NCBI GenBank assembly: GCA_018715195.1
Contig: DVMA01000006.1
Coordinates: 1 to 48,635, forward strand
Length of the DNA stretch: 48,635 bases
Direction: 5' to 3'
From: Candidatus Coproplasma excrementavium
GTDB lineage: Bacteria; Bacillota; Clostridia; Christensenellales; Borkfalkiaceae
Shown one piece after another: positions 1,922 to 48,079 of the stretch. The notes beneath the pieces are model-generated. The model worked only from the letters and a program-made list of their open reading frames with translations. It was not told the origin of the DNA and ran no database searches. The translations under genes were made by a program, and so were the position numbers. Each line of letters opens with the position of its first letter. The stretch's first letter is position 1.

Positions 1922-1967
1922 TAAAAATGCCGCACTTGCGGCGCTTTAAACAGAGAGGAAACAATTC

Positions 1968-8116: not shown

Positions 8117-8556
8117 CTTTCCTCGTACACAATGGCGTTATTGGGGCAGTTTTTAACGCAGTTCGGGTCGCCGAACCCGTTATCCGTGCAGAGCGCGCAT
8201 TTCTGGGCGGCCTTGCCGTCGGGCGCGGGCATTATCGCGCCGAACGGGCAGACGAGCACGCAGGTATAGCAGCCTACGCATTTGTTTTTGTCTATGCGGA
8301 CAACTCCGCCCTCATCCTTTGAAAGGGCGCCCGCTATGCAGCTTTTGACGCATATAGCATCGGTGCAGTGGCGGCAGTTGACGGCAAAATGAATGGCGTT
8401 GCCGTCCTCACCCTCCACCTTTATGCGGGGTATGAACTGATTGAGCCTGCCTTTGAGTTTGAACATTGCGTCCAGACCCGAATTTGCGTACATACACTCG
8501 TACTCGCAAAGGTGACAGCCCAGGCACCATTCTTCGTTCACGTAAATTCTTTTCAT
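8113..8556 (-). CDS. 4Fe-4S dicluster ferredoxin-domain protein
   Basis: Four Cys clusters: CLGCHLCEYEC, CRHCTDAICVKSC, CVGCYTCVLVCP, CALCTDN..NCVKNCP. Start set at ATG MKRIYV. The track start is a GTG two codons upstream. Confidence 0.8.
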   Translation of the reverse strand: MKRIYVNEEWCLGCHLCEYECMYANSGLDAMFKLKGRLNQFIPRIKVEGEDGNAIHFAVNCRHCTDAICVKSCIAGALSKDEGGVVRIDKNKCVGCYTCVLVCPFGAIMPAPDGKAAQKCALCTDNGFGDPNCVKNCPNNAIVYEER

Positions 8557-8612
8557 AAACACCCCCGTTAGTGCGCATATATGCGCCGTTCATTGCGCGG
8601 TGTCGCCGCGCA

Positions 8613-9893: not shown

Positions 9894-10060
9894 AATAAAG
9901 ATACCCTCTTGAAAAATATATTCGCCCCAGCTCTCTTAAGGGCGCGCCGCGCTTGGCGGCGTTCGTTTTAATTTTAACAGATTGAGGCGGCAATATGCCG
10001 CATTTATTGCAAATTTTTTAGACTTTTTCCGCAGCGAAAAACAGAATAACATTCTGAAAA

Positions 10061-10069
10061 ATTATATCA
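10061..10069 (-). promoter_or_regulatory. Extended -10 element TGATATAAT upstream of purA
   Basis: Minus strand reads CTGATATAAT about 170 nt upstream of the purA ATG. There is no good -35, but a TGn extended -10 can compensate. Confidence 0.4.
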
Positions 10070-10139
10070 GAATGCGCAGCTTAACGGCTGCATTTTTTGC
10101 CGCCGCGCCGCAGAAAAAGCGCAATGTCCCGCAAAAAAT

Positions 10140-12760: not shown

Positions 12761-12841
12761 AAGCCGCCCCGTAGCCGCGGACAAAATTTGCTCGCGGCCA
12801 GATAGTATTACCGCAAAAAAAATAAATTACAGTTCTATGCT

Positions 12842-12870
12842 ATTATATAAAAAACGGTCAAGCAAGTCAA
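12842..12870 (-). promoter_or_regulatory. SigA-type promoter TTGACT-17-TATAAT of the glutamate synthase operon
   Basis: Minus strand has TTGACT (12865-12870), a 17-nt spacer and TATAAT (12842-12847). It lies about 80 nt upstream of the amidotransferase start. Confidence 0.6.
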
Positions 12871-12983
12871 GCGGATATATTTGGCAATGCAAATTTATGC
12901 ACACATGCACGTTTGATTGTTTTAATACGCAATATAACTTGTCCTTATAAAAAAGCCGCTGGGCCCGCAAAAAGCGGTCTTAA

Positions 12984-13034
12984 GAAAAAAATTCTGCGGT
13001 CTGCGCACGGAAAATTGCGCGCGCAGACCGCAGA
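12984..13034 (-). terminator. Intrinsic terminator of the ClC gene
   Basis: 14-bp perfect stem TCTGCGGTCTGCGC / GCGCAGACCGCAGA (12993-13006 and 13021-13034). On the minus strand it is followed by ATTTTTTT. Confidence 0.8.
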
Positions 13035-13074
13035 TTGAGCCGTATATATATCTGAAATACCGTATTTTTACACA

Positions 13075-14682
13075 TTACTTTTCGGGAGCAAGGACAATAT
13101 CCTTGAGATAGTCCTTTACGTCCTCTTCAGAGGCGGCCACACATTCAAAAGTAATCTTATCGCCCGCGGAGAGCACCGTCTTGCCGTCGGGAACGAAACA
13201 CTCGCCGCAGGGCGGGCAGACTTCGGTGACCATTCCCTGCGCGGGCCACAGTACGGAACGTATGCTTCTGCCCTCGGCGTAGGAGTCCTCCTCCACCACA
13301 ATCTCCACGCGGCGCTTTTCCGCACCAACTACTATTTTGCCGTCCTCCACAATGAGGTCGAGGCACTTTTCAAACGCGGGCTGCGTGCGGAACACCTCGC
13401 CAACGATATAGCCTATGGCCACACCGAGAAGAGCGGGCAACAGATTCTGGAACTGCCCCGTGAATTCTACCGTCATTACGAGCGCCGTGACGGGGGCGCG
13501 CACGACCGTTGTGAAGTACGCCGCCATCGTGACAATTATTATATAGTCGGCCAGGGCAGAATTCATTCCCATACCCTCGAACCCCTTGCAGAGCAGCGCG
13601 CCCAGACCAGCGCCCGTTGCGAGCACGGGCACGAATATGCCGTAAGGCATTCCGCATCCGACCGCGAGTATGGTGGAAATAAAGCGGAACAGCACGACTA
13701 TTGCAAGCGTCGCCGCAACCGAAATGCCGAATATCCGTTCAAACTCTCCGTCCCAGCCCGAGCCGAGCGACTGAATGAAATCGTGACCGCCGCCCATGGC
13801 ATATGCGGAGATAAGTCCGAACGCACCCGCCACGAAGAAGGGAATTACGTACTTGCCCACTCCCTTTAAAAAGGTAATCTTTGAGAAACCTCTGCGGCAG
13901 AGCAGCATGAGGTGATAGAACGCCACGCCCAGAAGTCCCGCCGCGAGCGCGGCTATCGCCACATAGAGGTAGCCTATCGGCTCCATCGGAACATAGTTGA
14001 AAGTCGTGAAGGTAAAGCCGACGGAAAAGCCCATTGCCGAGCGCATGAGGTTGCGCACGGTGAGGGACACCAGCACGCTGACCGCCGAGCAGGTGAATAC
14101 CTGAGCAGAGAAGGAACGGAAGGCCTCCTCCATTGCAAAGGCAAGTCCCGTGAAGGGAGCGTTGAAGGCTACGGCAAGACCTGAAGATGCGCCCGCCGCT
14201 ATCTGCAGTCTGCGCACCATCAGCGAACGGCGAAGAGTTGCGCCCACGCCCTGACCTGCGCTTGCGCCTATTTCCAGCGAGGGTCCTTCACTGCCCGCGG
14301 GAAGTCCCATGAACACGCACGCCAGCGAGGCGGCAAACATAGAGCACATTACCACGTACCATCTGAAGTGAAGTATGCCGCGCGCCGCGCCCTCCGTCTG
14401 TGGTACGCCGCTGCCGCGTATCATCGGCACAAGTCGGGTGGCCGTGCCTATCACGAACGCACCTGCCGCAAGTCCCACAAACAGCAGCGGAACAAAGGCG
14501 GGATTTGCCGCAATCAGACTGTAAAGTTCAACCGACTTCTCCTCCGCTATGCCCGTGAGTATGTTGTACAGCGTGACCACCGCTCCCGCAAAAAGACCCG
14601 TAAGTATGCTGAGAGCAATGAGGTTTACGCCGTATTCGCGCAGGGCACGCAGACGGCTTCCGCTCTTTTTTTTCTGGCTCAT
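13075..14682 (-). CDS. ClC-family chloride channel/antiporter with C-terminal TrkA-C (RCK_C) domain
   Basis: ClC selectivity motifs GSGVPQ, GSEGPSLEIGA and GIFVPVLATGAGLG. The ~90-aa soluble C-terminus (VEIVVEEDSYAEGRSIRSV...DKITFE) is typical of TrkA-C. Confidence 0.9.
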   Translation of the reverse strand: MSQKKKSGSRLRALREYGVNLIALSILTGLFAGAVVTLYNILTGIAEEKSVELYSLIAANPAFVPLLFVGLAAGAFVIGTATRLVPMIRGSGVPQTEGAARGILHFRWYVVMCSMFAASLACVFMGLPAGSEGPSLEIGASAGQGVGATLRRSLMVRRLQIAAGASSGLAVAFNAPFTGLAFAMEEAFRSFSAQVFTCSAVSVLVSLTVRNLMRSAMGFSVGFTFTTFNYVPMEPIGYLYVAIAALAAGLLGVAFYHLMLLCRRGFSKITFLKGVGKYVIPFFVAGAFGLISAYAMGGGHDFIQSLGSGWDGEFERIFGISVAATLAIVVLFRFISTILAVGCGMPYGIFVPVLATGAGLGALLCKGFEGMGMNSALADYIIIVTMAAYFTTVVRAPVTALVMTVEFTGQFQNLLPALLGVAIGYIVGEVFRTQPAFEKCLDLIVEDGKIVVGAEKRRVEIVVEEDSYAEGRSIRSVLWPAQGMVTEVCPPCGECFVPDGKTVLSAGDKITFECVAASEEDVKDYLKDIVLAPEK

Positions 14683-15092: not shown

Positions 15093-16943
15093 TTATTCAG
15101 CCTTTACAGGTTCGGGTTCGTTGGTGAGTGCGCTGACACCGGTTTCACCCGTACGTACACGCATTACGTTTTCGATACCCGTTACGAAGATCTTGCCTGC
15201 GCCGTACTTGCCGTCATCAAGCACACGCTGTGCAACGGCTACGACGAGCTTGGGATCTACCGTACTTACTACTATATCCACCTGAATCTTGGGATTGAAG
15301 TGCATAGTAGTCTTTACGCCCCTGTACTGGCCGGTCTTGCCTGCCTGAGTGCCGCAGCCCATTACGTTGGTGACGGTCATGCCGGTTACGCCGATCTGAG
15401 CCATGGCATCCTTTAAGGTGAGGAACTTTTCCTGAGCGGTTATAATGGTAACCTTTGTATACTTTGCTTCGTTTACGGGAGCGAGGTCGATATCTGCGGG
15501 CTTGATGCCGGAGACGTCGAAGCCTTCGCCTTCGCCGTCGTAAGAAGGAATCGAAGGAAGGAAGTCAGCATATGCAGAGGGAAGTCCGTGCTCGCTGATG
15601 TCGAGACCGTTGACTTCTTCTTCAGCCGAGCAGCGCAGACCGTTCCAGGTCTTGCCTGCGCGGATTGCTTCTGCAAGACCGCACTTGTTCTTTATCATTA
15701 CGGGCAGGTACTTGATTGCGCCGAAGAGCACAACCATCCAGATACCGGTCCAAACGAGTATGCTTACGATGCCGAGAACCTGAACGCCGAGCTGTGCAAA
15801 GCTGCCGGTATAGAAGAGGCCGGTTTCGGTGGAGAACAGACCGCAGGCAAGTGTGCCCCAGATGCCGTTTGCGAAGTGTACGCCGATTGCGCCGACGGGG
15901 TCATCGAGATGAAGCTTCTTGTCGAGCAGGTCGCATACGAGAACAACAAGTATGCCGGAAACGATACCGATTACGGTAGCGCCGATTGCGTCAACGATGT
16001 AGCAGCCTGCGGTTACGCCTACAAGACCTGCAAGGGATGCGTTGAGGCACATGCCGACATCGGGCTTCTTATTCTTTATCCAGGTGAATATCATGCACAC
16101 AACCGTTGCAACGGAGGGTGCTATAGTAGTCGTGAGGAAGATGTGAGCGAGCTGGCTTTCGCTTGTTGCAGCTGCGCCGTTGAAACCGTACCAGCCGAAC
16201 CAGAGGATGAATACGCCGAGCGCGCCGAGCGTGAGCGAGTGGCCCTGAATTGCATTTACTTTTACTACCTTGCCGTTTTCGTCGCGGTCATACTTGCCGA
16301 TGCGCGCGCCGAGGAAGATAACGCCGATAAGCGCTGCAAGGCCGCCTACCGTATGTATGCAGGCAGAACCTGCAAAGTCGATGAAGTTAACGGCTACGCC
16401 GTCTACCGTAAGACCGGTGAGAGCGGAGAAGTTTGCAAGCCAGCCGTTGCCCCATACCCAGCCTGCCTCTACGGGATAAACCACGAGAGAGATGACTGCA
16501 GAATAGATGCAGTAAGAGATGAAACGGGTACGTTCTGCCATTGCGCCGGAAACTATGGTTGCGGCAGTTGCGCAGAACACAAGGTTGAATACGAAGTTTG
16601 ATGCCTTTTCAGCAACGAAAGTTTCGAAATCCGAGAAAAGTCCGAGGTTAGGAATGCCGATGAAGTATCCTGCGGCCTCCTGACCTACGAGCAGGGTGTA
16701 GCCGAGGAGCATAAACACGATGGTACCTATGCAGAAGTCCATAAGGTTCTTCATGATTATGTTGCCGGCATTCTTGGCCCTGGTAAAGCCCGTTTCTACC
16801 ATTGCGAAGCCGCACTGCATAAAGAATACAAGCGCTGCGCCAATGAGGAACCATATGGCAAACGCGGCTTCAGTTGACAGAGAAGTGATCATGTCTTCGG
16901 TCAGATTCTCCAACATAAAATGTCCTCCTGAAATTTTAGTCAT
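15093..16943 (-). CDS. amt: Ammonium transporter (Amt/MEP) fused to a C-terminal PII (GlnB/GlnK) signal-transduction domain
   Basis: Amt blocks FAMVETGF, DFAGSACIHTVGG, LWFGWYGFNG, DDPVGAIGVHFANGIWG and LRCSAEEEVNGLDISEHG. A ~40-aa linker is followed by a complete PII fold (see the next feature). Two in-frame ATGs (16943 and 16916) each have a strong SD (GGAGGA-8-ATG and AGGAGGA-6-ATG). Confidence 0.9.
   Translation of the reverse strand: MTKISGGHFMLENLTEDMITSLSTEAAFAIWFLIGAALVFFMQCGFAMVETGFTRAKNAGNIIMKNLMDFCIGTIVFMLLGYTLLVGQEAAGYFIGIPNLGLFSDFETFVAEKASNFVFNLVFCATAATIVSGAMAERTRFISYCIYSAVISLVVYPVEAGWVWGNGWLANFSALTGLTVDGVAVNFIDFAGSACIHTVGGLAALIGVIFLGARIGKYDRDENGKVVKVNAIQGHSLTLGALGVFILWFGWYGFNGAAATSESQLAHIFLTTTIAPSVATVVCMIFTWIKNKKPDVGMCLNASLAGLVGVTAGCYIVDAIGATVIGIVSGILVVLVCDLLDKKLHLDDPVGAIGVHFANGIWGTLACGLFSTETGLFYTGSFAQLGVQVLGIVSILVWTGIWMVVLFGAIKYLPVMIKNKCGLAEAIRAGKTWNGLRCSAEEEVNGLDISEHGLPSAYADFLPSIPSYDGEGEGFDVSGIKPADIDLAPVNEAKYTKVTIITAQEKFLTLKDAMAQIGVTGMTVTNVMGCGTQAGKTGQYRGVKTTMHFNPKIQVDIVVSTVDPKLVVAVAQRVLDDGKYGAGKIFVTGIENVMRVRTGETGVSALTNEPEPVKAE
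15126..15464 (-). other. PII domain portion of the amt fusion (about residues 494-606)
   Basis: The segment reads KVTIITAQEKFLTLKDAMAQIGVTGMTVTNVMGCGTQAGKTGQYRGVKTTMHFNPKIQVDIVV...GAGKIFVTGIENVMRVRTGE. It aligns position-by-position with E. coli GlnK as I recall it (T-loop YRG, K58, GxGKIF, RxRTGE). Confidence 0.85.
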
Positions 16944-17087
16944 TATCTGTATCCTCCGCGGTGGTCTGGGCCGTCAGAGGAAATTAAATAAAGATATATT
17001 TCAGAATAATTTTACGTTCGCGTAAAAAACAACTCTCTCTCATAGTGCCGCCTTACGCGGCATAAACACATTATGTCTGAACGATAA

Positions 17088-17116
17088 GGCCGCCCCGCGC
17101 CCTACGCGGGGCGGCC
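17088..17116 (-). terminator. GC-rich hairpin downstream of the glutamine synthetase gene (probable terminator)
   Basis: Perfect 12-bp stem GGCCGCCCCGCG / CGCGGGGCGGCC with a 5-nt loop, 28 nt after the stop. The T-tract is good on the plus side but only TTATCGTT on the minus side, hence moderate confidence. Confidence 0.55.
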
Positions 17117-17143
17117 CTTCTTATTCTGTTTTTATTTTGTGTA

Positions 17144-19225
17144 TTACTTTACGCTGTAAAGCAGATCGGTGTAGGAAGGATAAGGCCAGTAATCCTGGGC
17201 GGTAAGCGTTTCCATTTCGTCGCCGATTTTGCGTACGGCCTGCATCTGGGGAAGAATTTCGTGCGCCATAGCCTTGGACGCGGGACGTACATCTTCCTTG
17301 TCGATGCCTGCAAGCATATTTTCAAGCAGAGCAACCTGCTTTGCGAACTCATCGTTGAGCGCGGAAAGACGGGTTATAAGGCTCTTTTCTGCCTCGCAGG
17401 GGATATTTTCGGATATCGCCTTCTTTGCGGCCACGTTGGAGCAGAGCTCTGCAATGTAGTCGGATACGGCGGGCATTATGTCCTGCTTTGCCATCTTGAG
17501 CATGGTTACGGCCTCTATGTTGATTATCTTCACATAATTTTCAAGGCGAACCATTGCGCGGGCAAGCGCCTCCTGCTCGGTGTAGACGCCCTGGCTTACG
17601 AATACGTCTATATTCTTCTCTTCGAAGAACACTTCGGTAGCATCTGCGGTGTCCTTGTTGTTGAGCAGGCCCCTCTTCTCTGCTTCGGGTTCCCACGCGG
17701 GACCGTAGCCGTCGAGGTTGAAGATTATTCTCTTGTGAGCCTTTATCGTCCTGGTTACCAGCTCGCGGGCGGCTTTTTCGAGGTCCTTTTTGCCTTCGAG
17801 TTCGTCAGCAAACTTGGAGAAGGTCTTTGCGATTATGGTATTGAGAACTATATTTGCATCGGCAACGTTTGACTGCGAGCCGAGCATACGGAATTCGAAT
17901 TTGTTGCCCGTGAATGCGAAGGGAGAAGTTCTGTTTCTGTCCGACGCGTCCTTGGGGAAGATGGGCGATTCGGGTACGCCGATGGAGCCTTCCTGTGCGC
18001 GGAAAGGAACATAGTCCCTGCCGTTTGCAATGCTGTCCACAAGTTCGCCCAGCTGGTCGCCGAGGTATATGGATATGATTGCGGGAGGAGCTTCGTTGGC
18101 GCCGAGACGGTGGTCGTTGCCCGCAGAGGCAACGGCGCCCCTTAAAATGCCCTGATATTCATCCACGGCATCGATAACCGCCGCAAGAACTACCATGAAC
18201 AGAGTGTTCTTTTCGGGGTTGGGGCCGGGGTCGAGCAGGTTGAGACCCGTATCGGTGGACATGGACCAGTTGTTGTGCTTGCCGGAGCCGTTAATTCCGT
18301 CGAAGGGCTTTTCGTGCAGCAGGCAGATAAGTCCGTGCTTCTGAGCCACCTTTTTCATGAGCTCCATGGTGAGCATATTTTCATCGATGGCGACGTTAGT
18401 TGTGGCATATACGGGGGCCATTTCGTGCTGCGCGGGCGCAACTTCGTTGTGGCGGGTCTTGGAAGGAATGCCGAAAGACCACAGCGTTTCGTCGAGGTCG
18501 GCCATAAAGTCTGCAATGGTGGGCTTTATGGTGCCGAAGTAATGATCCTCAAGCTCCTGGCCGCGGAGAACGGGTGCGCCGAACAGCGTTCTGCCCGTCA
18601 TGCGAAGGTCTATGCGCTTGAAGTACTCCTCTTCGGAGATAAGGAAATATTCCTGTTCGGGGCCGACGGTCGTGGTGACCTTTTTGCATTCAACGCCGAA
18701 GAGCTTTAAAATTCTCTTGGCCTGCATGTCGAGCGCCTTCATTGATTTTAAAACGGGCGACTTTTTATCGAGCGTCTCGCCCGTGTAAGATACGAATATA
18801 GAGGGGATGTAGAGCGTGGTGCCCTTTACGAATGCGGGGGAAGTGGGGTCCCACGCCGTATAGCCGCGCGCCATATAAGTTGCTCTTGAACCGCCCGAGG
18901 GGAAGCTGGACGCATCGGGTTCGCCGACGATGAGGCTCTTGCCCGTCAGACGCATTATGACTTTGTCGCCTTCGGGTTCGATAAAGCTATCGTGCTTTTC
19001 GGCGGTGAGACCGGTGAGCGGCTGGAACCAGTGAGTATAGTGGGTTGCGCCCTTGGAAACTGCCCAGTCCTTCATTGCGGCGGCAACTGCGCCTGCTATG
19101 GATACATCGAGCTGAGTGCCCGCTTCGATTGTAGCACGGAGCGACTTATACACTTCTTTGGGGAGCCTCTCCTTCTGCACGGCGTCATTGAATACGTTTT
19201 CGCCGAACTTTTCGGGAAGATTCAT
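17144..19225 (-). CDS. glnN: Glutamine synthetase, type III
   Basis: 693 aa, the size class of GSIII. The N-terminus [29 protein letters not shown] and the block [16 protein letters not shown] are characteristic of the Bacteroides/Clostridia GSIII family. SD is AGGAGA. Confidence 0.92.
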
Positions 19226-26871: not shown

Positions 26872-29800
26872 TTACTTGATTTTCCTTACATCCTTTACAA
26901 GCCCGTCTTCAATGAGCTCTTCAATGGTTTCGTAAGGATACATTGCGGCGTAATCCCTTTCCTGGATAGGACGCTTTTCGCCATTGCGGCGCTTTAACAT
27001 TTCATCTATCAGACGAATGGCCTTCTTTACGCCGAGAGGGCTCTTTATTTTGACCATCATAGGAGTGCCGTGCATTGACTTGTTGTCAGATACGTCTACC
27101 TGATGGTATACCGATGTCTTGAATTCGTTGGGATCGAGGTTGAGATACAGGCAGAGCGTCTTGCCCCTTATTTTGAGTTTTGCAATGGTCTCTCTGCCCT
27201 TGTTGAAGCGCTCTGCACCCCAGGCGATGGAGGAATTTACCCTTCTGTATGCGAGCATGGCGTTCTTTATCTGGCCATAGTAACGCTTTACATCGTCATC
27301 GCTCTGAATTATTCTTGCAATGAAGCTGCGGTTGTACTTCATCATGTTGGCGAAGTCAACGCCGTCATTGCTTATTCCTGGTATGCCGTCGGGTTCAGCC
27401 TCGCCTTCAACGGTCTGCTCGTCTACATCGTCAAAGATGTTCTCTATGACTTCGTCCACGGGCTCATCCTCTACGGCGCTTTCATCTACGATGTCGCTTA
27501 CCGTAACAAGCTCCTCGTCCTCGGCATCTTCAGACTCTTCGGCTGCCTGCTCTGCAGGTTCTTCAGAAGGTTCTTCCGCGGCAGGCTCTTCTGCCTTCTC
27601 TTCGGCTGCTTCTTCTGCGGGTTCCTCTGCGGGAGCTTCTTCAGCCGTTTCTTCAACGGGTTCTTCCGCAGGCTCTTCTGCGGGAGTTTCTTCAGCCGTT
27701 TCTTCAACGGGTTCTTCCGCAGGCTCCTTGGCGGGAGCTTCTTCAGCCGCTTCCTCAACCGTTTCTTCAACAGGCTCCTTGGCGGGTTCCTCTGCGGGCG
27801 CCTCTTCAGCAGGCTCTTCTGCGGTCTCTTCAACCGTTTCTTCGGCAGGCTCTTCCTTGTCGGCAGCGGCAGCCGCGGCTGCCACGGTGGTTATTACCGC
27901 GCCGCCCGCTATCATTGCCTTTATCTGGTCGAGCTGTCTGTTGATTTCGGAAATTTCCTGTCTGATTTCGGCTATGTCTTCCGAAGGCTGAGCCTCGGCA
28001 GATTCCGTCTTTTCCTCTGCACTGCGGGCAACCAGCTCATCTATTCTGGAAGTGAGCTCGGCAACCTCGCCCTTGAGATCCTGGATTGCAGGGTCGTTCT
28101 TCATATCTTCAAGCTTCTGCTTGATGTCGTCAAATTCTGCCTGAACGGGGTCCTCTTCGATTATCTCGCCGTTCTCATCCTCCACTTCTTCGGGTGCGAA
28201 CAGATTATCTATTCTGGAGGTGAGTTCGGCAACTTCGCCCTTGAGGTCGTGAATTGCAGGGTCGTGCTTGATTTCTTCAAGCGTTGCCTTTATGTTTTCA
28301 AGTTCAGCCTTTACTTCGTCGGGCTGTTCCTCTTCTGCGGCCTCCTCAGCCTCGTCCTCCTCAAGTTCCTCGGGTTCGAGCAGCTCTTCGAGTTTGGCGG
28401 TGAGTTCGTCTATCCTGCGGCCGAGCTCGTCAACCTTTTCGGCTGTCGCAAGTTCGGGTGCGGGCTGCTCCTCGGCGGCCTCTTCGGTCGTCTCTTCGAG
28501 CTCCTCGTCGGGAGTGAGCAACTCTTCAATCTTGGCGGTGAGTTCGTCTATCCTGCGGCCGAGCTCGTCAACCTTTTCGGCGGTCGCAAGTTCGGGTGCG
28601 GACTGCTCTTCGGCGGCCTCTTCGGTCGTCTCTTCGGCGGTATCTTCAAGCTCTTCGTCGGGTTCGAGAAGCTCGTCAAGTTTAGCGGTGAGCTGCTCTA
28701 CCTGGGCCTTGAGCTCTTCCACAGAGCCGTCGGCCTTGATTTCGTCGAGCGTGAGTTTGATATTTTCAAGCTCCGTCTTTACGGCGTCTTCTTCGGCAGT
28801 TTCTTCGGCGGCCTGTTCAACCTCGCCCTCGTCTATCTCCTCGGGCTCGAGCAGTTCGTCGAGTTTTGCCGTAAGTTCGTCTATCTTGCGGTTGATTTCC
28901 GCAATGTCTTCAGCAGCTGCGGGAGCAGACTCTTCAGCCTTCTCCTCAACAACTTCTTCGGCGGGCTGTTCGGCAGTTTCAGCGCTCTCTTCGGAAGTTT
29001 CTTCAACTTCCTCGGCGGGCTCTTCAGCCTTCTTAACCTCGTCGAGAGCGGCGCGCATGTCGGCAAGCTCGCTCTTCATTGCGGCAAGTTTATCGTCCAT
29101 GCCCTCGAGCATGGCGTTGGTGGAGGCAGTAACCTTCCACGAAATGCTTTCCGTAATCTTCTGAAGGCCTTCGTCGTCTATTACTATATCGTAATCTTCC
29201 TCGGCGGGCTCTTCAGCGGCTGCGGGAGCAGCCTCTGCGCTTTCGGCAACGTCTTCCTTGCCGCGGCCGAGCTTTTCGCATACGCCGTCCACAATGGCGT
29301 CGTAGTCGATTTCGGTTGCGGGTATGGAGGCGAGCACCGCGGAGGCAACCTTGTCGGCAATGTCGTCTGCGTCTATTTCAGGCAGGTAGTTGGAAATAGC
29401 CGCGGCGGTCTTGTCGGCGATGGATTCTTCGCTGATGCCGTTTTCGCTGAGCGCTTCCGATATCATTCTGGCCATCTCTTCGTCGGAGGTGCGTGTATCC
29501 TCTGCGGCGGCGTCCGCTGCTGCCACTTCGTCTGCGGCGGCGGAATTCTTTTCGGCCAGTTTTGCAATTATGAGGTCGTAATCCAGATTTTCCACAACGG
29601 CCTCGGCAAGAGAACGGCAACCTTCGTCGTCGACGATGATGTCGAAATCGTTGGGCGAAAGCGCGCTGACCTTGCGTGCAATTTCGTCGGCCATTGCATC
29701 GTTATCGGCCGCCGTAACTTCGGCAGCTTCTTCAACCTTGGTCTCTTCTTCGTTTGCGGCAAGTTTTTCGGCTATGCGGTCTGCAAGCTCGTCATAGTCA

Positions 29801-30552
29801 AGCTTGGCATCGGCATAAACGACGCTCGCCTGCTGCGAAGCCTCGCCTTCGGGCAGAACAATCTGCTCTGCAACCTTGGACGCAACGTAATCGGGCGAGA
29901 TGATTTCCTGGGGAGGCAGACTGTCTGCCACCTTCTTGGCAAGTTCGTCGTAGTCGATTGCCGTGGAAACGAGTCCCTTTTCCTCCAGCTTGCCGCAGAT
30001 GTTGTCTGCAAGCACGTCGTAGTCTATGTAACCTTCGGAAATGGAGAGCTGTTCGCCGCTTTCGCTCTCTTCCACGGCGGCAGGAGCAACCTCGTCATCG
30101 AACGTGGCAACTTCATCTGCGACGGGTTCGGCCGCGGGAGCAAGCTTTTCGTAATCGATGGCGTTTGCATCTATCTTTTCGCCGAGCCTCTGTTCGAGGG
30201 CGGCTATCATTCCGGAGAGCTTTGAGAAGACGTTTTCGCACTGCGCGGCGAGATAGCCCATCTCCTGCTTGAGTCCCACGTTTTCGGCGTGGAGCTTTTC
30301 ATAGATGGCGCTTGACTGCTTGCTTATGTACGAAGTTTCGCGCGACATCTTGTCGGCGAGCAAATCTGTCTTCTGAGCGAGAGCCTCCGTCTTCTGGGCA
30401 ACAGAATCTGCCTGGCCGGACGAATGAACCGCCGCAAGCAGCTGGTCAAGCCTTGCAACGATTTCCGCTTCGCGCTGAAGTATCACATCCGCCTTGGTGG
30501 CATATGCGGGCTGTGCGCCCCCTCCGTTTTTCTTGTTGAAGATACCTGCCAT
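26872..30552 (-). CDS. 1226-aa hyper-acidic nested-repeat protein: N-terminal coiled coil, (I/L)DYD helix repeats, E/P/A-rich spacer and a basic globular C-terminal domain. Function unknown.
   Basis: Uninterrupted ORF. Start at MAGIFNKKNGGG (ATG 30550-30552) behind an AAGAGGTG SD. The C-terminal ~170 aa (FANMMKYNRSFIARIIQSDDDVKRYYGQIKN...KIRGKTLCLYLNLDP...MVKIKSPLGVKKAIRLIDEM) are non-repetitive and K/R-rich. Confidence 0.8.
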   Translation of the reverse strand: MAGIFNKKNGGGAQPAYATKADVILQREAEIVARLDQLLAAVHSSGQADSVAQKTEALAQKTDLLADKMSRETSYISKQSSAIYEKLHAENVGLKQEMGYLAAQCENVFSKLSGMIAALEQRLGEKIDANAIDYEKLAPAAEPVADEVATFDDEVAPAAVEESESGEQLSISEGYIDYDVLADNICGKLEEKGLVSTAIDYDELAKKVADSLPPQEIISPDYVASKVAEQIVLPEGEASQQASVVYADAKLDYDELADRIAEKLAANEEETKVEEAAEVTAADNDAMADEIARKVSALSPNDFDIIVDDEGCRSLAEAVVENLDYDLIIAKLAEKNSAAADEVAAADAAAEDTRTSDEEMARMISEALSENGISEESIADKTAAAISNYLPEIDADDIADKVASAVLASIPATEIDYDAIVDGVCEKLGRGKEDVAESAEAAPAAAEEPAEEDYDIVIDDEGLQKITESISWKVTASTNAMLEGMDDKLAAMKSELADMRAALDEVKKAEEPAEEVEETSEESAETAEQPAEEVVEEKAEESAPAAAEDIAEINRKIDELTAKLDELLEPEEIDEGEVEQAAEETAEEDAVKTELENIKLTLDEIKADGSVEELKAQVEQLTAKLDELLEPDEELEDTAEETTEEAAEEQSAPELATAEKVDELGRRIDELTAKIEELLTPDEELEETTEEAAEEQPAPELATAEKVDELGRRIDELTAKLEELLEPEELEEDEAEEAAEEEQPDEVKAELENIKATLEEIKHDPAIHDLKGEVAELTSRIDNLFAPEEVEDENGEIIEEDPVQAEFDDIKQKLEDMKNDPAIQDLKGEVAELTSRIDELVARSAEEKTESAEAQPSEDIAEIRQEISEINRQLDQIKAMIAGGAVITTVAAAAAAADKEEPAEETVEETAEEPAEEAPAEEPAKEPVEETVEEAAEEAPAKEPAEEPVEETAEETPAEEPAEEPVEETAEEAPAEEPAEEAAEEKAEEPAAEEPSEEPAEQAAEESEDAEDEELVTVSDIVDESAVEDEPVDEVIENIFDDVDEQTVEGEAEPDGIPGISNDGVDFANMMKYNRSFIARIIQSDDDVKRYYGQIKNAMLAYRRVNSSIAWGAERFNKGRETIAKLKIRGKTLCLYLNLDPNEFKTSVYHQVDVSDNKSMHGTPMMVKIKSPLGVKKAIRLIDEMLKRRNGEKRPIQERDYAAMYPYETIEELIEDGLVKDVRKIK
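27560..27860 (-). repeat. About 5 tandem 51-bp (17-aa) units encoding PAEEPAEEPVEETAEE(A/T)
   Basis: GGGAGCTTCTTCAGCCGTTTCTTCAACGGGTTCTTCCGCAGGCTC recurs at 27631 and 27682 (51-bp period), with flanking degenerate copies. Confidence 0.8.
28030..28374 (-). repeat. Two tandem 168-bp (56-aa) units (DPAI(H/Q)DLKGEVAELTSRID...)
   Basis: ATCTATTCTGGA(A/G)GTGAG(C/T)TCGGCAAC(C/T)TCGCCCTTGAG begins at 28039 and again at 28207. Confidence 0.8.
28375..28700 (-). repeat. About 2.3 tandem 138-bp (46-aa) units (VDELGRRIDELTAK(I/L)EELL(T/E)PDEELEETTEEAAEEQPAPELATAEK)
   Basis: TTGGCGGTGAGTTCGTCTATCCTGCGGCCGAGCTCGTCAACCTTTTCGG occurs at 28394 and again, identically, at 28532. Confidence 0.85.
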
Positions 30553-30802
30553 AATTGCACCTCTTTGTTGCGGCGCGGTCATACACGACCATATAATATA
30601 ACGCCGCACGTTTTGCTTACAGAATCATTTTACAACAAAAAATGAAAAAAGTAAATATAATTGACGAAAATTTTTGTCGGTTTCAGCAAAAAATTTTTGA
30701 TTGAGCCGCAAATATGCCGCAGTTAACGCATTTTCTGGCAGGACCTGGAAAGCCGCGCGTGATACTTTCGATAAAAAAATGTCAATAATTTTGCCGACGG
30801 GG

Positions 30803-39187: not shown

Positions 39188-39223
39188 AAAAAAATTCCGC
39201 GCCGTAAAAGACGCGGATTTTTT
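39188..39223 (-). terminator. Weak bidirectional-looking terminator after the SpoIVA-like gene
   Basis: 6-bp stem TCCGCG / CGCGGA (39196-39201 and 39212-39217) with a 10-nt loop. There are T-runs on both strands. Confidence 0.4.
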
Positions 39224-39272: not shown

Positions 39273-40361
39273 TTACAGAATGATGCAGATTACGCCGCCC
39301 TTGCCCTCGTTTACCATTCGGGTCATCGCCTTGCGCAGTTTTGCGCGGGTATCTTCCTGAATTGCGCCGACCTTTGCACCCAGCCCCTCCTGAACCATGG
39401 CTTTCAGAGATTTGCCGAACACATCGGTATTCCACGTCTCTTCGGGGTTGGTTTCAAAGCCGCTCATCATGCTCTTTACAAGGCTTTCGCTCTGGGAGGC
39501 CTCGCCCATTATGGGGCACACCTCGCCCGAAACGTCCACCCTTATCACGTGATAAGTGGGCGCGGACGCGCGCAGTTTTATGCCTACGGAGCTGCCCTGC
39601 TTTACAACCGAGGGCTGTTCGTAGCTTAAATCTTCCTCGGCGGGGGATACTATTCCGTAACCGTTGACGCGCGCACATTCAAGCGCGTCGCGCACTTTCG
39701 CATATCCCTTTTTGGCCTCAGATGCCGAACGAACGTACTTCATCAGCGTATATTCGCCGTCTATTTTGTCGCCCGCAATTTCGGAGAGCATTTCAAAGAA
39801 TATTCCGTCGCGCTCGCGGCAGATGACCTTTGCCTCGGCCGCGGCATAGTTCACTTCCAGAGTGACTTCCGCCGACCAGTACTTCGTCTTTTCGGTAATA
39901 AGCGAAAGCGCCGAGGCGTCCTTTATTTTTTTTACATTCTTGCAGACCTCTGCCGTATGCGAAACGAGTTCTGCCACAGCGGAATTTTCCGCAGGCAGAA
40001 AGCGCATCCATTCGGGAATATCCACATTGACCGCACTGAGTGCAAATTCGCCCGAAAGGGCGGCGACAAGCGCGCCCAGGCGCTCATCCGTCCACTCACC
40101 GGGAGCTATGCAGGCGCAACCGTATTCCTTTCTTACGCCCTCGGCGTCCTCGGAAATTACTATAAAGGGCCTGCCCGCGGCCTCGGCAAGCACATCGCAG
40201 GAGGTATCCGCAAAAATTGCGGCGGCACTCTCCGCGCACAGCTCCTCCGCCGCCACGCCCGCATCCGCAAGGGCTGAAATAAGGCCGCCGTCGCCGCGCA
40301 CCCCGACCGCGCCGCCCTTTAAAAGCGCGGACAAATCTTTACAAATTTCACTGTCCGTCAT
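39273..40361 (-). CDS. SpoIVA homologue lacking a functional Walker A motif and much of the N-terminal ATPase core
   Basis: The C-terminus NEGKGGVICIIL matches my recalled B. subtilis SpoIVA NEGSGGLIAIIL. VNVDIPEWM matches VNVNLPSWV, and APTYHVIRVDVSGEVCPIMG matches APSIHMIKVDVESEFAPIIG. The P-loop position reads GVRGDGGL instead of GAVRTGKST. Start set at MTDSEICKDL (ATG 40359-40361, GGAGGA SD). Confidence 0.8.
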   Translation of the reverse strand: MTDSEICKDLSALLKGGAVGVRGDGGLISALADAGVAAEELCAESAAAIFADTSCDVLAEAAGRPFIVISEDAEGVRKEYGCACIAPGEWTDERLGALVAALSGEFALSAVNVDIPEWMRFLPAENSAVAELVSHTAEVCKNVKKIKDASALSLITEKTKYWSAEVTLEVNYAAAEAKVICRERDGIFFEMLSEIAGDKIDGEYTLMKYVRSASEAKKGYAKVRDALECARVNGYGIVSPAEEDLSYEQPSVVKQGSSVGIKLRASAPTYHVIRVDVSGEVCPIMGEASQSESLVKSMMSGFETNPEETWNTDVFGKSLKAMVQEGLGAKVGAIQEDTRAKLRKAMTRMVNEGKGGVICIIL

Positions 40362-40465
40362 ATCGTCCTCCGCATTTTGCCGCGCTTTGCTTTCAGTTTT
40401 GCCATCCGTGCCGCGGCTATACAATAATCTATTGCGCGGCGGAAATTTTTAGAACGGTTTTTGAA

Positions 40466-40496
40466 CATAAAAAAGGCAGGGGAGTGCCCTGCCTTT
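40466..40496 (-). terminator. Intrinsic terminator of the ATP-grasp gene
   Basis: Minus strand reads GGCAGGG-CACTC-CCCTGCC followed by TTTTTTATG. Confidence 0.85.
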
Positions 40497-40504: not shown

Positions 40505-41698
40505 TTAAATTTCACACGTGAGCAGCGCGTCCTTATAGAATGCGTTCATCTCCTCTCGCGTTTTGAAGTTTGCAAGGAAATAAGTGTTGCCCATGGCCGC
40601 GGCAAGGGCGTCGGGTATGCGGCCGATTTCCTTGATGTTTGCGGCATATATATGGGCCAATTGCTCATCCGAATACCTGAAGGGCTTGCCGTCGCGGCGG
40701 CCTGCATACGCACAGAAGAACCTTTCGCCCGTGGTTACAAGCGTGCTGTCATAGGCAATCATATCCGCCCATATCTTATACACGTCCGTGGAATTTGCGT
40801 AGTTCATCATATCGGGAGTAAAGCCGCCGCAGGGGCGCATATTTACTTCCAGCGCAATCACGTCGCCCTTTTTGCCGAGGAACTGGTCGGCAGTAAGGCG
40901 GAAAAATTCAAAGTGCACAAAGCGGCTCTTAACGCCGAAGGCCTTCACCGTGCGCCTGCCCGCGTCGCGCACGTCGGGGGCAAGCTCGTTTACTATATAA
41001 TATATGCTGTTGCCATTGGTGTTTACTATATCCATTATGGAAAGGGGCGTAACGTTGCCCGTTTCAAACACGGGTTCGCCGCGGCTGTTTATTATCGCAT
41101 CGTAGGAGTTGACTTCCGCCTGAACAAACTCCTCCATTATGTACTGCACGGGAGGCTTGGTATTGAGAAATTCCCTAAGCTCCTCGTCGGAGGAGAGCTT
41201 GTACGTATCATTTGCGCCCACGCCGTTATCAGGCTTTACTATTACTGGATAGCCGACGGTGGCTATGAATTCGCGGCAGGCCTCTTCCGAGGTGACCAGG
41301 CAGTAGCGCGCCGTGACAACGCCCGCCTTTTTGTAAAACTCCTTCATGCGGGACTTGCACTTTACCTTGGGCATATCTTCCGATTTGAAGCCCGTGCACA
41401 CGTTGAAGTCCGTGCGCAGGCGCGCGTCCAGCTCCAGCCAGTATTCGTTGTTGCTTTCAATGAAATCTATGCGGCCGTACTTAAATGCAAAGTACGCGGC
41501 GGCGCGGTAGACCTCCTCATAATTTTTCAGCGAATACACCCTGTAATATTCTGCAAGATTTTCCTTTACCTCGGGTGCGAGGTTTTCATACGGGCAGTCG
41601 CCTATGCCCAGCACGTTGAAGCCGTTTTTCTTCAGTTCAAGGCAGAACTTGTAGTAATTGGTCGGAAAATTCGGCGAAATAAATATAAAGTTTCTCAT
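40505..41698 (-). CDS. ATP-grasp family ligase of unknown substrate
   Basis: A pre-ATP-grasp N-domain is followed by KSRMKEFYKKAGV...GYPVIVKPDNGVGA, typical of carboxylate-amine ligases. The second ATG (41698) has correct SD spacing (GGAGGG-8-ATG). The track start is 41704. Confidence 0.85.
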   Translation of the reverse strand: MRNFIFISPNFPTNYYKFCLELKKNGFNVLGIGDCPYENLAPEVKENLAEYYRVYSLKNYEEVYRAAAYFAFKYGRIDFIESNNEYWLELDARLRTDFNVCTGFKSEDMPKVKCKSRMKEFYKKAGVVTARYCLVTSEEACREFIATVGYPVIVKPDNGVGANDTYKLSSDEELREFLNTKPPVQYIMEEFVQAEVNSYDAIINSRGEPVFETGNVTPLSIMDIVNTNGNSIYYIVNELAPDVRDAGRRTVKAFGVKSRFVHFEFFRLTADQFLGKKGDVIALEVNMRPCGGFTPDMMNYANSTDVYKIWADMIAYDSTLVTTGERFFCAYAGRRDGKPFRYSDEQLAHIYAANIKEIGRIPDALAAAMGNTYFLANFKTREEMNAFYKDALLTCEI

Positions 41699-41916
41699 TT
41701 TCATACCCTCCCCCGCTCGCCGCGGGAAATGGCGGCTTTCTGCCGCCTTATTACAAATATTTGCGACATATGTGCCGCTGTTTTTACTGCGGGCGACACA
41801 TATACGCTTTGAAAGTCACTTTATTTAAGTCGCCGCGCGCAAGCTGCGCAAGTAAAAGAATGCAAAATAAGTCCGACAGCATTGAATGGCACATATATGG
41901 CACCCAATGCCAAAAA

Positions 41917-44718: not shown

Positions 44719-45729
44719 TTACACAAGATTTTTGAAAAGTTCGAGATTTTTCGGCGAAATAGTGCGCTCTCCGCGCTCGATTTCGTGCACGCCGTTGCAG
44801 ATAATGCTGTTGAGCGGACCGTCAGCGCCCTTCTTCTTTGCATAGGCGAGCGCCGCGCCGTTTATGAAGTCAATTTCGCACAGTCTGCCCGCGGCCAGGT
44901 CGCAGTACATTCCCGAAACTATGTCGCGGTGCTTTTTCATTGCAAGCGGTATTATCATATAGGACAGCCATTTTGTGAAAGGTCCGCGGTAGCCGAGTAT
45001 TTTTTCCACGTTGTGGCCCTGCACTTTAGCGGGGCGTATGCCGCAGACCTTTGCCATGTCAAAGCACTCTTTAAGCACCGCCTGCGCCACTTTTCTTGCA
45101 TACTTATTATCGCAAATCTGTCCAAAAGTCAGCCCTGTAAGCGCCGAAATGCCCGAAAAAGCGCAGTTTATGGTGAGTTTTGACCACCTTGCGCCCACAA
45201 AATTTTCTTCCACGGTGACCTTGCCCATCAGGCTCAAAAGATTTCTGACGTCCTCAAGCCTGTTGCATTTGCCGAAAATTGTGCCGAGAGCAAATTCCAA
45301 TGCGTCCGTGCGGGTGGTCAGCCGCGCGCTGCCCTTGCCCAGAAAGGTAGCTCCCCAGGAAACGGCACAGCCGCAGCAGCGTTCCTTGCCCACGATTTCA
45401 CCGACAAGAGGTTCGGGCAGACCGTTCTGTGTGGTGCATACCACTCCGTCCTCCGCAAGATATGGCGACAGAAATTTAAGAATTTCGGCGTTGTGACGCT
45501 GTTTGGTCATGAGGAAAATGACGTCGTATTCCCCCTCCATCTCCTCGGGCAGGTACGCCTTTACGGGCACGGTGAATTCAGCCTCGCCCACAATGTGCGC
45601 GCCGCCCGACCTGAGCGCCGCTATATGCTCCCTGTTGCGGGAAATAAGGTCAATGCTGCCGCCGTTTTTTGTTATGTATGCGCCGAGCACCGTACCCATT
45701 GCGCCCGCGCCGTAGATTGCCGCCCTCAT
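44719..45729 (-). CDS. panE: Ketopantoate (2-dehydropantoate) reductase family oxidoreductase
   Basis: N-terminal Rossmann IYGAGAMGTVLGA and ApbA/PanE-like length and layout. The start overlaps the stop of the upstream GH3 reading frame by 4 nt. Confidence 0.8.
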   Translation of the reverse strand: MRAAIYGAGAMGTVLGAYITKNGGSIDLISRNREHIAALRSGGAHIVGEAEFTVPVKAYLPEEMEGEYDVIFLMTKQRHNAEILKFLSPYLAEDGVVCTTQNGLPEPLVGEIVGKERCCGCAVSWGATFLGKGSARLTTRTDALEFALGTIFGKCNRLEDVRNLLSLMGKVTVEENFVGARWSKLTINCAFSGISALTGLTFGQICDNKYARKVAQAVLKECFDMAKVCGIRPAKVQGHNVEKILGYRGPFTKWLSYMIIPLAMKKHRDIVSGMYCDLAAGRLCEIDFINGAALAYAKKKGADGPLNSIICNGVHEIERGERTISPKNLELFKNLV

Positions 45730-48079
45730 TTTTTATTCTCCTTTCTGCGTTCCTTGCCCGTGATTATCTTTCTGAGTCCGCTGAAAAATCTGCCGTTGCA
45801 CATATCCACAAACCCGTGCGCCTGCGCGAGGTTGAAACCCGCGTACTGCATTGCCGAACGCACGCTTATGTAGCGGAACGTGAGCAGAGCCTTGTTCTTT
45901 TTGCCCGTGCAGTACCAGTCGGCAATGCGGTATATTAGCCGCCCCGTTACGCCGTTTGCACGCTTTAAATCAATCAGCGGGCTGTGCAGAGTGATTACCT
46001 CCCTGCCCACGGGCTGGGGCGCGGGAGATGCGGTCTTGTCCTTTGCCATAACGTAGGCAATAAGCCGTTCGCGCAAGGCAATACCTGCACCCGCGGAGGG
46101 CGCGCTCTGACCGTTTATCTGAATTACCGAATAAAGGCGTATATCGCGCGAGGAAGAGCCTACGCCTATGCCGTATTCACCGCCATATATGGCGAAACTA
46201 TGCGTATTTTCGTCGAATATCCGCAGCACGTTTTTGTTGAGCGGAATGAAGATAACCTGCTCCTGCCCCGGCTGGAGATATACCTTTTTATACCCCATAA
46301 GTTTTTTTACGGGAGTGCATACGCCGCAGTCGGGAAGGTACACGTACACCTGCGCCACCTCTGCGCCTGCGGTAAAGCCGATATTTTTTACCCTGAACGC
46401 CACGCCGCTCTCCGTTGCGCTTAAGCGCGAGTACTCGAACTGCGTATAGGAAAGGCCGTGACCGAAGGGATATTTTACCGCAACTTCCGCCGCGTCGTAC
46501 CAGCGATAACCCACTAAAATATCCTCTTCGTAGCGGCATATGTAGGGGTCTTTTGCGTATTCCGCGCCGCAGGGTACATCTTCATAGGAGATGGGGAAGG
46601 TCTGCGCGAGCTTGCCGCAAGGTACGGCACTGCCGCAAAGAAGGTCGGCAACAGCGCCGCCCGTTCCCGCGCCGGTGAGAGGCATATACAGCACCGCGGC
46701 ACAGCTTTCGTCCCAGGAGGTATCCACAGCCGAACCCGAGAACAGCACTACTATCGGGTGAACGCCCTCGGCCGCGAGCGCGCTCAGAAGTTCCGTCTGG
46801 CAGGCGGGCAGCAGCATATCTTCCCTGTCGCCGCCCTCGGCGTCGTCCATATCCGAAAGGCCGACAAACACGACCGCGTGTTCGGCCGTCTTTGAAAGTT
46901 TTACCGCCTCGGCAATAAGTTTTGCGTTGCGGCGGCCGTCACTCTGATAGCCGCGGGCAAAGCCCGTAACCACGAAGCGGCTGCGCAGACAGGAGAGAAT
47001 ATCGTCCGACGCGTTGAAATTGACCTTTGCCGAACCGCCGCCCTGAAGGTGAGGGTTGACGCACAAATCGCCTATGACCGCCACGGACGAGCCGCCGCGT
47101 ATGGGCAGAACGCTGTTTTTTAAAAGTACGGCGCAGTTCTGCGCGGCCGTGCGCGCAAGCGCGAGGTGAGCCGACATATCGCACGGCGGCTGCGCCGCGC
47201 GGGAGTACTTCTGCGCAAAGGCGGCTATGCGGTTGACGCAGCTGTCAATCTCCTCCTCGGCAAGGTTGCCCGAAAGCACGGCATTTTTTAGCTGTTCGGC
47301 GGAAAAGGCACAGCGGGGCATCTCTATATCCTCACCCGCCTTTACGCCCGCAACGCGGTCGCTTGTGCCCGTCCAGTCGGAAATGACTATGCCGTCAAAA
47401 CCCATTCGCAGCGGAGTATGTCCGAAATAAGCCACTTGTTTTCCGAACAGAATTTATCGTTGAGCTTGTTGTAGGCCGTCATTACGCAGGCCACTCCGCC
47501 CTGCGTTACAGCCATTTCAAAGGGAACGAGGTACACCTCTCTGAGGGCGCGTTCAGATACTTCTGAAGAGTATATGGTGCGGGCAAATTCGCGTCCGTTT
47601 ACGGCAAAGTGCTTTACGCACGCCGCCGTGCCCGTGCTCTGCACGCCCTGAATGTACTGCGCGGCAAGACTGCCCGCAAGGTATTCGTCCTCGGAAAAAT
47701 ATTCAAAATTTCTGCCGCAGAGAGGGTTGCGCTTTAAGTTTACGCCGGGGCCGAGCAGTACGTTTACGCCTGCGGAGGCCGCCTCCTCGCCGAGGGCTGT
47801 GCCAACGGCGTACACAAGTCCGCCGTCCCACGAGCAGGCCAGCGCAGAGAGCGAGGGAAAGCCCGTTGCGGGAAGGGTATTTTCCATTTCCGAGCGGTTG
47901 CCGTTGCCCGCCTCTATCCTGAGGCCTGAAGGGCCGTCGGCAAAGCGCACGGAGGGTACCCCGCGGGAGGAATAGTCCTGCGTGGTCCAGAAGTCGCGAC
48001 CGCTTAAAAGTGCGGTCTTTTCATTGAGATTGAGGCGGAGTGAAGGCAAAGTCACGCCGCGGGGTTCATTTGTATTCAT
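45726..48079 (-). pseudogene. GH3 beta-glucosidase split by a single-base frameshift (or assembly error)
   Basis: ORF 47387-48079 ends ...SDILRCEWVLTA*. The -1 frame continues GFDGIVISDW (GH3 nucleophile block) as ORF 45726-47435. The reading GAATGGGTTTTGAC needs one more G (plus-strand CCC run 47400-47402) to give CEWGFDG. Confidence 0.8.

Follow-up and report, generated by a model that had tools for sequence, protein, structure and literature searches.

Head-reduced SpoIVA orthologues without a canonical ATPase P-loop in Candidatus Coproplasma and other uncultured Clostridia

The 48,635-nt contig DVMA01000006.1 (assembly GCA_018715195.1) of Candidatus Coproplasma excrementavium, referred to here as the window, carries on its reverse strand (39273..40361, stop codon 39273–39275) a gene for a 362-residue, head-reduced orthologue of the sporulation protein SpoIVA. 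SpoIVA is a textbook cytoskeleton-like protein that polymerises irreversibly by ATP hydrolysis and lays the foundation of the spore coat. The open reading frame (ORF) runs uninterrupted from an ATG at 40361 to a C-terminal end reading NEGKGGVICIIL, and a Shine–Dalgarno sequence (SD), GGAGGA, lies 4 nt 5′ of the start codon (40366..40371, reverse strand), as an initial annotation made from the sequence alone had stated; the motif GCGGAGGA is kept in orthologous loci. An alternative TTG start at 40424, which would yield 383 residues, is unlikely, since it overlaps a conserved promoter element and the extension occurs in no homologue. The ATPase-less SpoIVA is a variant of a known protein and not a new kind of system; no earlier account of ATPase-less, truncated or degenerate SpoIVA orthologues was found in the searchable literature.

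Profile searches bore out the SpoIVA similarity and returned complete middle and C-terminal domains, both encoded on the reverse strand. The middle domain, or stalk (residues 109–286; 39504..40037), matches Pfam PF20438 with an E-value of 1.4e-44 over model positions 2–179 of 179, which is full coverage. The C-terminal domain, or base (residues 289–362; 39276..39497), matches PF20439 (E 2.6e-26) over positions 3–76 of 76, and its tail NEGKGGVICIIL is invariant or nearly so across aligned SpoIVA homologues. Residues 1–108 (40038..40361) form an N-terminal α/β stub, recognised as a remnant of the TRAFAC ATPase head from alignments, AlphaFold2 (AF2) models and the ratio of non-synonymous to synonymous substitution (dN/dS). 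In the Pfam search the 362-residue protein gave no match to SpoIVA_ATPase (PF09547), even at E ≤ 1; alignment and Pfam agree that neither an intact GxxxxGK[ST] motif nor a full-length ATPase domain is present. Correspondingly, the TIGR02836 equivalog model scores the protein at 238 bits, below its cutoff of 459.9, and aligns over model positions 228–492 only.

Alignment with 491-residue homologues shows that the 235-residue ATPase head is reduced to a stub of ~105 residues, from which the Walker A Lys/Ser, the sensor Thr and the Walker B Asp are gone. Over its first ~40 residues the stub is homologous to the SpoIVA segment made up of strand 1, the P-loop region and helix 1. Of the hallmark of P-loop NTPases (TRAFAC, Era-like), strand 1 and helix 1 are retained, joined by a shortened loop without GK[ST]. 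This P-loop region reads VGVR--GDGGLISAL opposite VGVVGPVRTGKSTLIKKF, is ~5 residues shorter than in the 491-residue homologues and has neither Lys nor Ser/Thr, in keeping with the earlier description of a dead P-loop (GVRGDGGL opposite Walker A). Positions K30, T70 and D97 of Bacillus subtilis SpoIVA correspond to D, A and a gap, respectively, in an alignment with the 492-residue B. subtilis sequence, in which the residues named in published work stand at the right numbers.

The initial annotation had estimated that about 130 residues are missing and had called the protein N-terminally deleted. The estimate is close, as ~129 residues are absent relative to the 491-residue homologues, but they are lost in three to four blocks internal to the N-terminal domain, and the extreme N-terminus (MxDxEIxxDL..R.GG, strand 1) is still present. 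Switch I with the sensor Thr, Walker B and the EDGxPRLVNTPW insert fall within the deleted blocks, as does part of what follows TTDG; the strand GKPFxIV is preserved, in the form GRPFIVIS. Within the short clade, the stub follows the pattern MLDxEICxDLxARLGG, VGVCG, LLAAL, CGAxIF, GRPFIIV, YGCAC and LLRALAGEF. A metal site formed by this Cys-rich stub was considered and rejected, as no Cys other than C82 is invariant, and two of the commoner Cys positions are absent from the window protein. Loss of the catalytic motifs predicts that canonical P-loop ATP binding and hydrolysis, and hence polymerisation driven by ATP hydrolysis, would be impossible for the short SpoIVA, which would therefore have to act without nucleotide.

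An AF2 model of the full protein, built from a 69-sequence alignment, has a mean predicted local distance difference test (pLDDT) score of 77, with values of 77–93 over residues 1–105. Modelled alone from 22 sequences, the stub gives a pLDDT of 83.6, a predicted template modelling (pTM) score of 0.77 and a compact α/β domain with the order helix, strand, helix, strand, strand, helix, strand, helix, strand, helix. Foldseek comparison of the full model with the PDB returned nothing significant, and the stub matched only generic three-layer α/β folds (CheY-like, flavodoxin and B12-binding-like; TM ~0.5, E > 0.06). These generic matches would fit a stripped NTPase core and point to no specific new function. 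A sequence search of the PDB found no SpoIVA structure. By alignment, the B. subtilis positions L337, M340, L377 and I403, which Bauda et al. (2026) mutated to break the dimer, are M, V, Y and I in the short SpoIVA, and thus all hydrophobic.

The gene order GH3, ApbA, Hydrolase_4, esterase(s), ATP-grasp and spoIVA is found in all short-form loci (the window, L002, L003 and L009–L015), as established by tblastn of the window's neighbouring genes against all fetched loci together with precomputed gene tables. An identical order surrounds genes for 491-residue SpoIVA with an intact GPVRTGKST (L004 and L019–21, the latter carrying the very abundant P0056), and those for intermediates of 434 and 435 residues (L005/P0107 and L018/P0065). 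Furthermore, the genes for RNase J, an O-methyltransferase, peptidase U32 and MurA, which lie at 20–26 kb in the window, also flank the full-length gene in L019. Since short, intermediate and full-length genes share this order, the short one lies at the ancestral spoIVA locus and is an orthologue of spoIVA. The synteny anchor is a gene for a 399-residue ATP-grasp-like protein (40505..41704, reverse strand), which invariably lies just upstream of spoIVA in the family, whether short, intermediate or full-length, and which has weak or sub-threshold Pfam matches only.

Other genes recur around the locus. A small DUF378 membrane protein (79–87 residues) is encoded within a few kb of spoIVA in L009, L011, L015, L017, L018, L019 and L025, and in L017 it lies directly 5′ of a 423-residue reduced spoIVA. 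The window also encodes a 1245-residue protein (26872–30609, reverse strand) with no credible Pfam domain and only weak matches of the coiled-coil type. In some species its gene is situated between spoIVA and the RNase J gene, and its relatives vary in length and sequence (ORFs of at least 911 residues, some cut by locus ends).

The short spoIVA is isolated as its own transcription unit by the intrinsic terminator of the upstream ATP-grasp gene (40472..40496, reverse strand), which was confirmed where the initial annotation had placed it. The intrinsic terminator 3′ of spoIVA (39196..39217, reverse strand), previously described as weak, is a respectable hairpin with an 8-bp stem, six GC pairs and a following T7. 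A conserved promoter-like element, GTTCTAAA-N14-AATAGATT-ATTGTATA, with sigma-E-like spacing, occupies 40418..40455 on the reverse strand. Every orthologue in the family, whether short, intermediate or full-length, has the same order at its 5′ side, namely GTTCTAAA-N14-(C)AATAGATT-ATTGTATA, then GCGGAGGA, then ATG. The form TTCTAAA-N14-AATAGATT is common to short, intermediate and full-length loci, with exceptions in the first block at L005 (GAATAAA) and L015 (GCATAAA).

Regulatory continuity of the short gene with full-length spoIVA is thereby shown. At the equivalent place, Christensenella-type full-length spoIVA has a textbook sigma-E promoter, TCATATT-N14-CATATATT, with the same 7-14-8 geometry as the family element. 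The coding strand 5′ of the short spoIVA holds no sigma-70-like promoter. Dependence of the short gene on sigma-E, judged from these sequence features, is plausible only; a regular-expression scan of the window for promoters of sigma-E or sigma-K type gave few matches and was uninformative, and an Rfam search of the window gave no matches. The leader between the promoter element and the SD (40375–40417, reverse strand) is ~30–35 nt longer in the window than in L014, L011, L003, L009 and L002, and the insert, CCGCGGCACGGATGGCAAAACTGAAAGCAAAGCGCGGC, is partly self-complementary.

Searches of 5.8 billion proteins recovered at least 26 clusters of the short form (P0001–P0024, P0026 and P0031; 359–382 residues), which are 49–100% identical at 98–100% query coverage. 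All 26 carry the middle and C-terminal domains only, come from ENA, NCBI and Logan assemblies, and contain no frameshifts or stops. Members of the window's cluster are found on contigs of up to 678 kb. The closest full-length SpoIVAs, of 491 residues, are at most 53% identical to the short form. One member of the short clade, P0127 from Candidatus Coproplasma avistercoris, was deposited as a hypothetical protein.

Some database entries have an apparently composite structure. In P0025 the SpoIVA stalk and base follow an N-terminus of the cellulase family (PF00150), and in P0029 a P0157-like stub precedes a C-terminal half identical to that of P0005; both are probably assembly chimeras between co-occurring strains. 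Further chimeric or truncated entries include P0181 and P0191.

A neighbour-joining (NJ) tree with bootstrapping, built on 263 shared columns and weak at its deep nodes, recovers the short clade as monophyletic (bootstrap 89) within a bootstrap-100 clade that includes full-length and intermediate forms. An exhaustive HMMER search of 1.84 billion representatives for further forms adds other complete ORFs of 360–405 residues that lack a P-loop (P0157, P0158, P0161, P0162, P0167, P0169 and P0202). These seven have the conserved N-terminal start, no GK[ST] and a full stalk and base, are 36–51% identical to the query, and are placed outside the window's clade in the NJ tree. Only two of these placements are well supported: the position outside the bootstrap-89 short clade, and the grouping of P0202/P0167 (bootstrap 100) with P0165/P0166 (bootstrap 97), in which the full-length P0166 is sister to P0202/P0167. 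The tree suggests that the head was lost independently in several lineages of uncultured Clostridia, and at least three such losses can be inferred, although not demonstrated, from it.

Four proteins retain a P-loop in a reduced head, namely the 434-residue L005/P0107, the 435-residue L018/P0065, P0082 (423 residues) and P0165 (419 residues), of which the last two were recovered by the same HMMER search. Their stalk and base are present and their head has partly been lost by internal deletion, as in the short form, and in L005 and L018 they occupy the same locus. Unlike the short form, they keep GxxxxGK[ST] and a PF09547 match, and have lost the switch I/sensor-Thr and Walker B regions. By sequence, these intermediates resemble steps of the same reduction that came earlier or ran in parallel.

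Selection was estimated by the Nei–Gojobori method on codon alignments. For the least saturated species pair, L002 and L009 (dS 0.74), dN/dS is 0.215 over the whole ORF, 0.275 over residues 1–108 and 0.193 over the middle and C-terminal domains. The adjacent ATP-grasp-like gene, at 0.099 in the same pair, is under strong purifying selection (dN/dS ~0.1). Two near-identical allele pairs (dS 0.016) differ by synonymous changes only (dN 0). The stub is thus faster-evolving than the stalk and base, yet constrained.

Scaffold_230 of ERZ28573866 (133 kb) is 100% identical to window positions 1–13188 and reaches 8 kb further left (L023), where positions 1–4785 of that locus hold dnaA, mnmG (gidA) and an intact gene for a 773-residue SpoIIE. 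The scaffold was reached through an exact match to a 406-residue acyltransferase encoded in the window. Because dnaA and mnmG lie directly left on this identical scaffold, the window adjoins the chromosomal origin. The same scaffold holds a 362-residue short SpoIVA (L025) ~43 kb from spoIIE, so at least one other sporulation-specific gene is intact in a genome with the short form. The SpoIIE has the sporulation-specific SpoIIE_N domain and a PP2C domain, and it aligns with TIGR02865 over positions 108–763 of 764 at 277 bits, below the 490.8-bit cutoff. Full-length SpoIIE (744–810 residues), 52–80% identical, is encoded in many relatives; the closest lies on a contig of similar coverage in the same metagenome as a second metagenome-assembled genome (MAG) with a short SpoIVA.

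Elsewhere in the window, the genes are ordinary metabolic ones, and no sporulation gene other than the short spoIVA is present; the flanks of P0082 and P0099 likewise hold no further sporulation genes. Candidatus Coproplasma corresponds to GTDB UBA11940 (Christensenellales, Borkfalkiaceae), with genomes of 1.4–1.7 Mb and 50–56% GC (PMC8035907), and the base composition of the window is consistent with this GC range.

Bauda et al. (2026; bioRxiv 10.64898/2026.07.09.737436) reported that the B. subtilis head (residues 2–235) polymerises alone, and that the stalk and base form a tight dimer needed for forespore localisation, for localisation of SpoVM and SpoVID, and for function. In Clostridioides difficile, sensor-Thr and Walker B mutants form 2–3-fold fewer heat-resistant spores and K35E 100-fold fewer, compared with losses of 10^4- to 10^8-fold for the corresponding B. 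subtilis mutants (PMC7549369). The species difference was put down to Bacillales-specific quality control by CmpA and to redundancy with SipL and SpoVM (PMC7549369). The premise of the initial annotation, that ATP hydrolysis is indispensable and that the protein therefore cannot work in the canonical way, holds in so far as no canonical ATP route is left; the requirement itself applies to B. subtilis only, as C. difficile motif mutants still sporulate.

The short SpoIVA shares its stalk and base with canonical SpoIVA (B. subtilis type; TIGR02836; PF09547 + PF20438 + PF20439), at identities from ~35% for Bacillus-type proteins to 53% for the nearest Clostridia. Also in common are the C-terminal tail, the hydrophobic interface positions, the locus in sister species, the monocistronic unit and a similar upstream element. 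Unlike canonical SpoIVA, the short form lacks the Pfam ATPase domain and, as predicted from its motifs, ATP-driven polymerisation, the defining mechanism of B. subtilis SpoIVA. C. difficile ATPase-motif mutants, in which 20–40% of forespores are still encased and heat-resistant spores are 2–100-fold down, set a functional precedent in Clostridia for SpoIVA that does not depend on ATP (PMC7549369). They are laboratory point mutants with the head fold intact, whereas in the short form the head has been physically reduced in nature and the reduction is fixed across a clade. C. difficile SipL, moreover, prefers the ATP-bound head, and such a head would be impossible in the short form.

A further parallel, in principle, is offered by pseudoenzymes, in which an active site is lost and the domain is kept for structure or regulation. 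In the C. difficile pseudoproteases CspA and CspC, a catalytic domain without its active site is retained under selection. These proteins belong to another family and fold, and their fold is whole; in the short SpoIVA more than half of the domain is deleted.

Taken together, the short protein is probably a SpoIVA orthologue that functions independently of nucleotide and remains able to dimerise and to coat the forespore. It is proposed that, in a lineage of uncultured gut Clostridia comprising Candidatus Coproplasma and relatives, internal deletions trimmed the head to a nucleotide-free stub of ~105 residues, with the stalk and base retained under purifying selection. The short SpoIVA would be made in the mother cell from an ancestral sigma-E-type promoter, would dimerise through the stalk and base, and would use its hydrophobic C-terminal strand, alone or together with SpoVM, as an anchor to the outer membrane of the forespore. 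Encasement of the forespore may then proceed through dimer–dimer or lateral contacts, or through contacts with a SipL-like partner, in place of ATP-driven polymerisation of the head. C. difficile mutants in the ATPase motifs, which still build spores, would do so in this same mode. As for the stub, it is probably kept as a structural cap or docking surface atop the stalk.

Several observations weigh against this proposal. Synonymous divergence is saturated (dS > 1) in most pairs. The family element departs from the sigma-E consensus, as its −10 block is AATAGATT where CATAxAxT is expected and its −35 block has CTA for ATA at most loci; C. difficile sigma-E promoters have an ATA −35 and a CATATxAT-type −10 (PMC3789822). 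When the upstream regions were aligned with Christensenella promoters by MAFFT, the blocks were placed differently and the −10 was ambiguous. Within ~64 kb around the short gene, the only other sporulation-specific gene seen is spoIIE. The genomes of Candidatus Coproplasma (1.4–1.7 Mb; PMC8035907) are smaller than that of Candidatus Desulforudis audaxviator (2.2 Mb), the smallest spore-former genome mentioned in the literature consulted. Finally, the machine-learning classifier SpoMAG placed MAGs of human Borkfalkiaceae among the non-sporulators (PMC12536801). Predictions in the literature disagree about the family, as Candidatus Borkfalkia, its type genus, was predicted to be a spore-former from gene content (PMC6839795) and Borkfalkiaceae-related MAGs were reported with sporulation genes (PMC11536998).

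The last three of these objections, namely the dearth of sporulation genes apart from spoIIE, the very small genomes and the SpoMAG classification, also favour a serious though unlikely alternative. Here, true endospore formation would have been lost and the stalk–base module, perhaps together with SpoIIE, kept for some other function at a membrane; examples would be a reduced form of sporulation-like differentiation, remodelling of the septum or envelope, or the formation of offspring. Purifying selection shows function and not which function, and SpoIVA has recently been tied to septal remodelling and engulfment besides the coat. Such repurposing sits poorly with an upstream element common with full-length orthologues and sigma-E-like in architecture, with an intact and conserved SpoIIE that has its sporulation-specific N-domain, with an unchanged, putatively membrane-anchoring tail and dimer-interface positions that stay hydrophobic, and with the sporulation predicted from gene content in the type genus. 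SpoIVA is not known to act outside sporulation, which also counts against it.

It is improbable that a full-length, ATP-hydrolysing SpoIVA is encoded elsewhere in these genomes and that the short form is an accessory paralogue co-assembling as a regulatory or capping subunit. In principle, polymers could be capped or spaced by a subunit that dimerises but has no head. The short gene, however, lies at the very locus that holds full-length spoIVA in sister species, and the close full-length and intermediate homologues examined (L004, L005, L018 and L019–21) are syntenic orthologues from other species. Furthermore, a scan of GTDB species representatives gave one locus per assembly, and the identity of at most 53% to the closest full-length proteins also speaks against a paralogue.

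Decay is very improbable. Under this explanation, sporulation was recently lost and the gene is an eroding pseudogene whose frame is open by chance, as might be supposed from the missing catalytic motifs and ~129 deleted residues, from a non-synonymous rate in the stub 2–3 times that of the remaining protein, and from a frameshift in the neighbouring GH3 gene of the window's species. An eroding gene would not be expected to keep the same short architecture, free of frameshifts and stops, in at least 26 clusters at 49–100% identity, nor a dN/dS of ~0.2 (~0.28 for the stub) with dN 0 in alleles at dS 0.016. The SD, promoter element and terminators are conserved as well, and the stub is predicted with high confidence to be folded. 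Of the three options raised by the initial annotation, a decaying relic, a paralogue and a nucleotide-independent scaffold, only the last therefore survives, with the canonical motifs lost and the ORF under selection.

An assembly or gene-calling artefact, in which mis-assembly or a wrong start hides the head of a full-length gene, has a negligible probability. Chimeras and truncations do clearly occur among database entries (P0025, P0029, P0181, P0191 and others), but assemblies made independently, from many samples and by many pipelines, have identical architecture and flanks. Each deletion is internal and keeps the frame, and both ends of the protein are conserved. Only 144 nt separate the short gene from the end of the upstream gene, which has a terminator of its own, so that no room is left for a missing exon.

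If the short protein is indeed a nucleotide-independent SpoIVA, it bears on how universal ATP-driven polymerisation is for coat initiation. It is possible, but held with some doubt, that an entire radiation of small-genome gut Clostridia (Borkfalkiaceae and others) builds spores with a head-less, nucleotide-free SpoIVA, that the head was lost independently several times, and that the ATPase is not universally needed for coat initiation. Were this so, the ancestral scaffold would be the stalk–base dimer, sufficient in itself, and polymerisation driven by ATP would be a refinement of particular lineages that can be dispensed with. Head-less SpoIVA and the intermediates at one locus offer a ready-made evolutionary dissection of the protein, which would reveal the functions residing in the stalk and base (dimerisation, membrane or SpoVM anchoring, and localisation). 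The same dissection would put to the test the need for polymerisation outside Bacilli, the group in which CmpA enforces it by quality control. Genome-based predictors of sporulation may overlook spoIVA and misjudge common gut taxa, because TIGR02836 rejects the short forms and database entries are named hypothetical protein.

Further observations concern the remainder of the window and its surroundings. No credible small ORFs were found in the gap at 26.05–26.87 kb. A 515-residue protein (3185–4732, forward strand) has a sub-threshold match to Spore_YtfJ (E 0.002; 18.8 bits against a 25-bit cutoff) and no other Pfam family, and the match is probably not meaningful. The GH3 β-glucosidase gene (45726–48079, reverse strand) is split into overlapping ORFs of 569 and 230 residues, where related species have a single ORF of 768–777 residues. 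The split is repeated in independent assemblies of the species (L025 and L026), and because these agree it is a real frameshift, pseudogene or recoding site and not a sequencing error. To the right of the window on the same scaffold (L025, 1–2581), genes for a TIR_2-domain protein, an AAA ATPase and a trypsin-like protease stand side by side and may form an anti-phage defence cluster. At 15093–19225 (reverse strand), an ammonium transporter–P-II fusion is encoded beside type III glutamine synthetase; a set of GOGAT-like genes comes next, and this region is an ordinary nitrogen-assimilation island.

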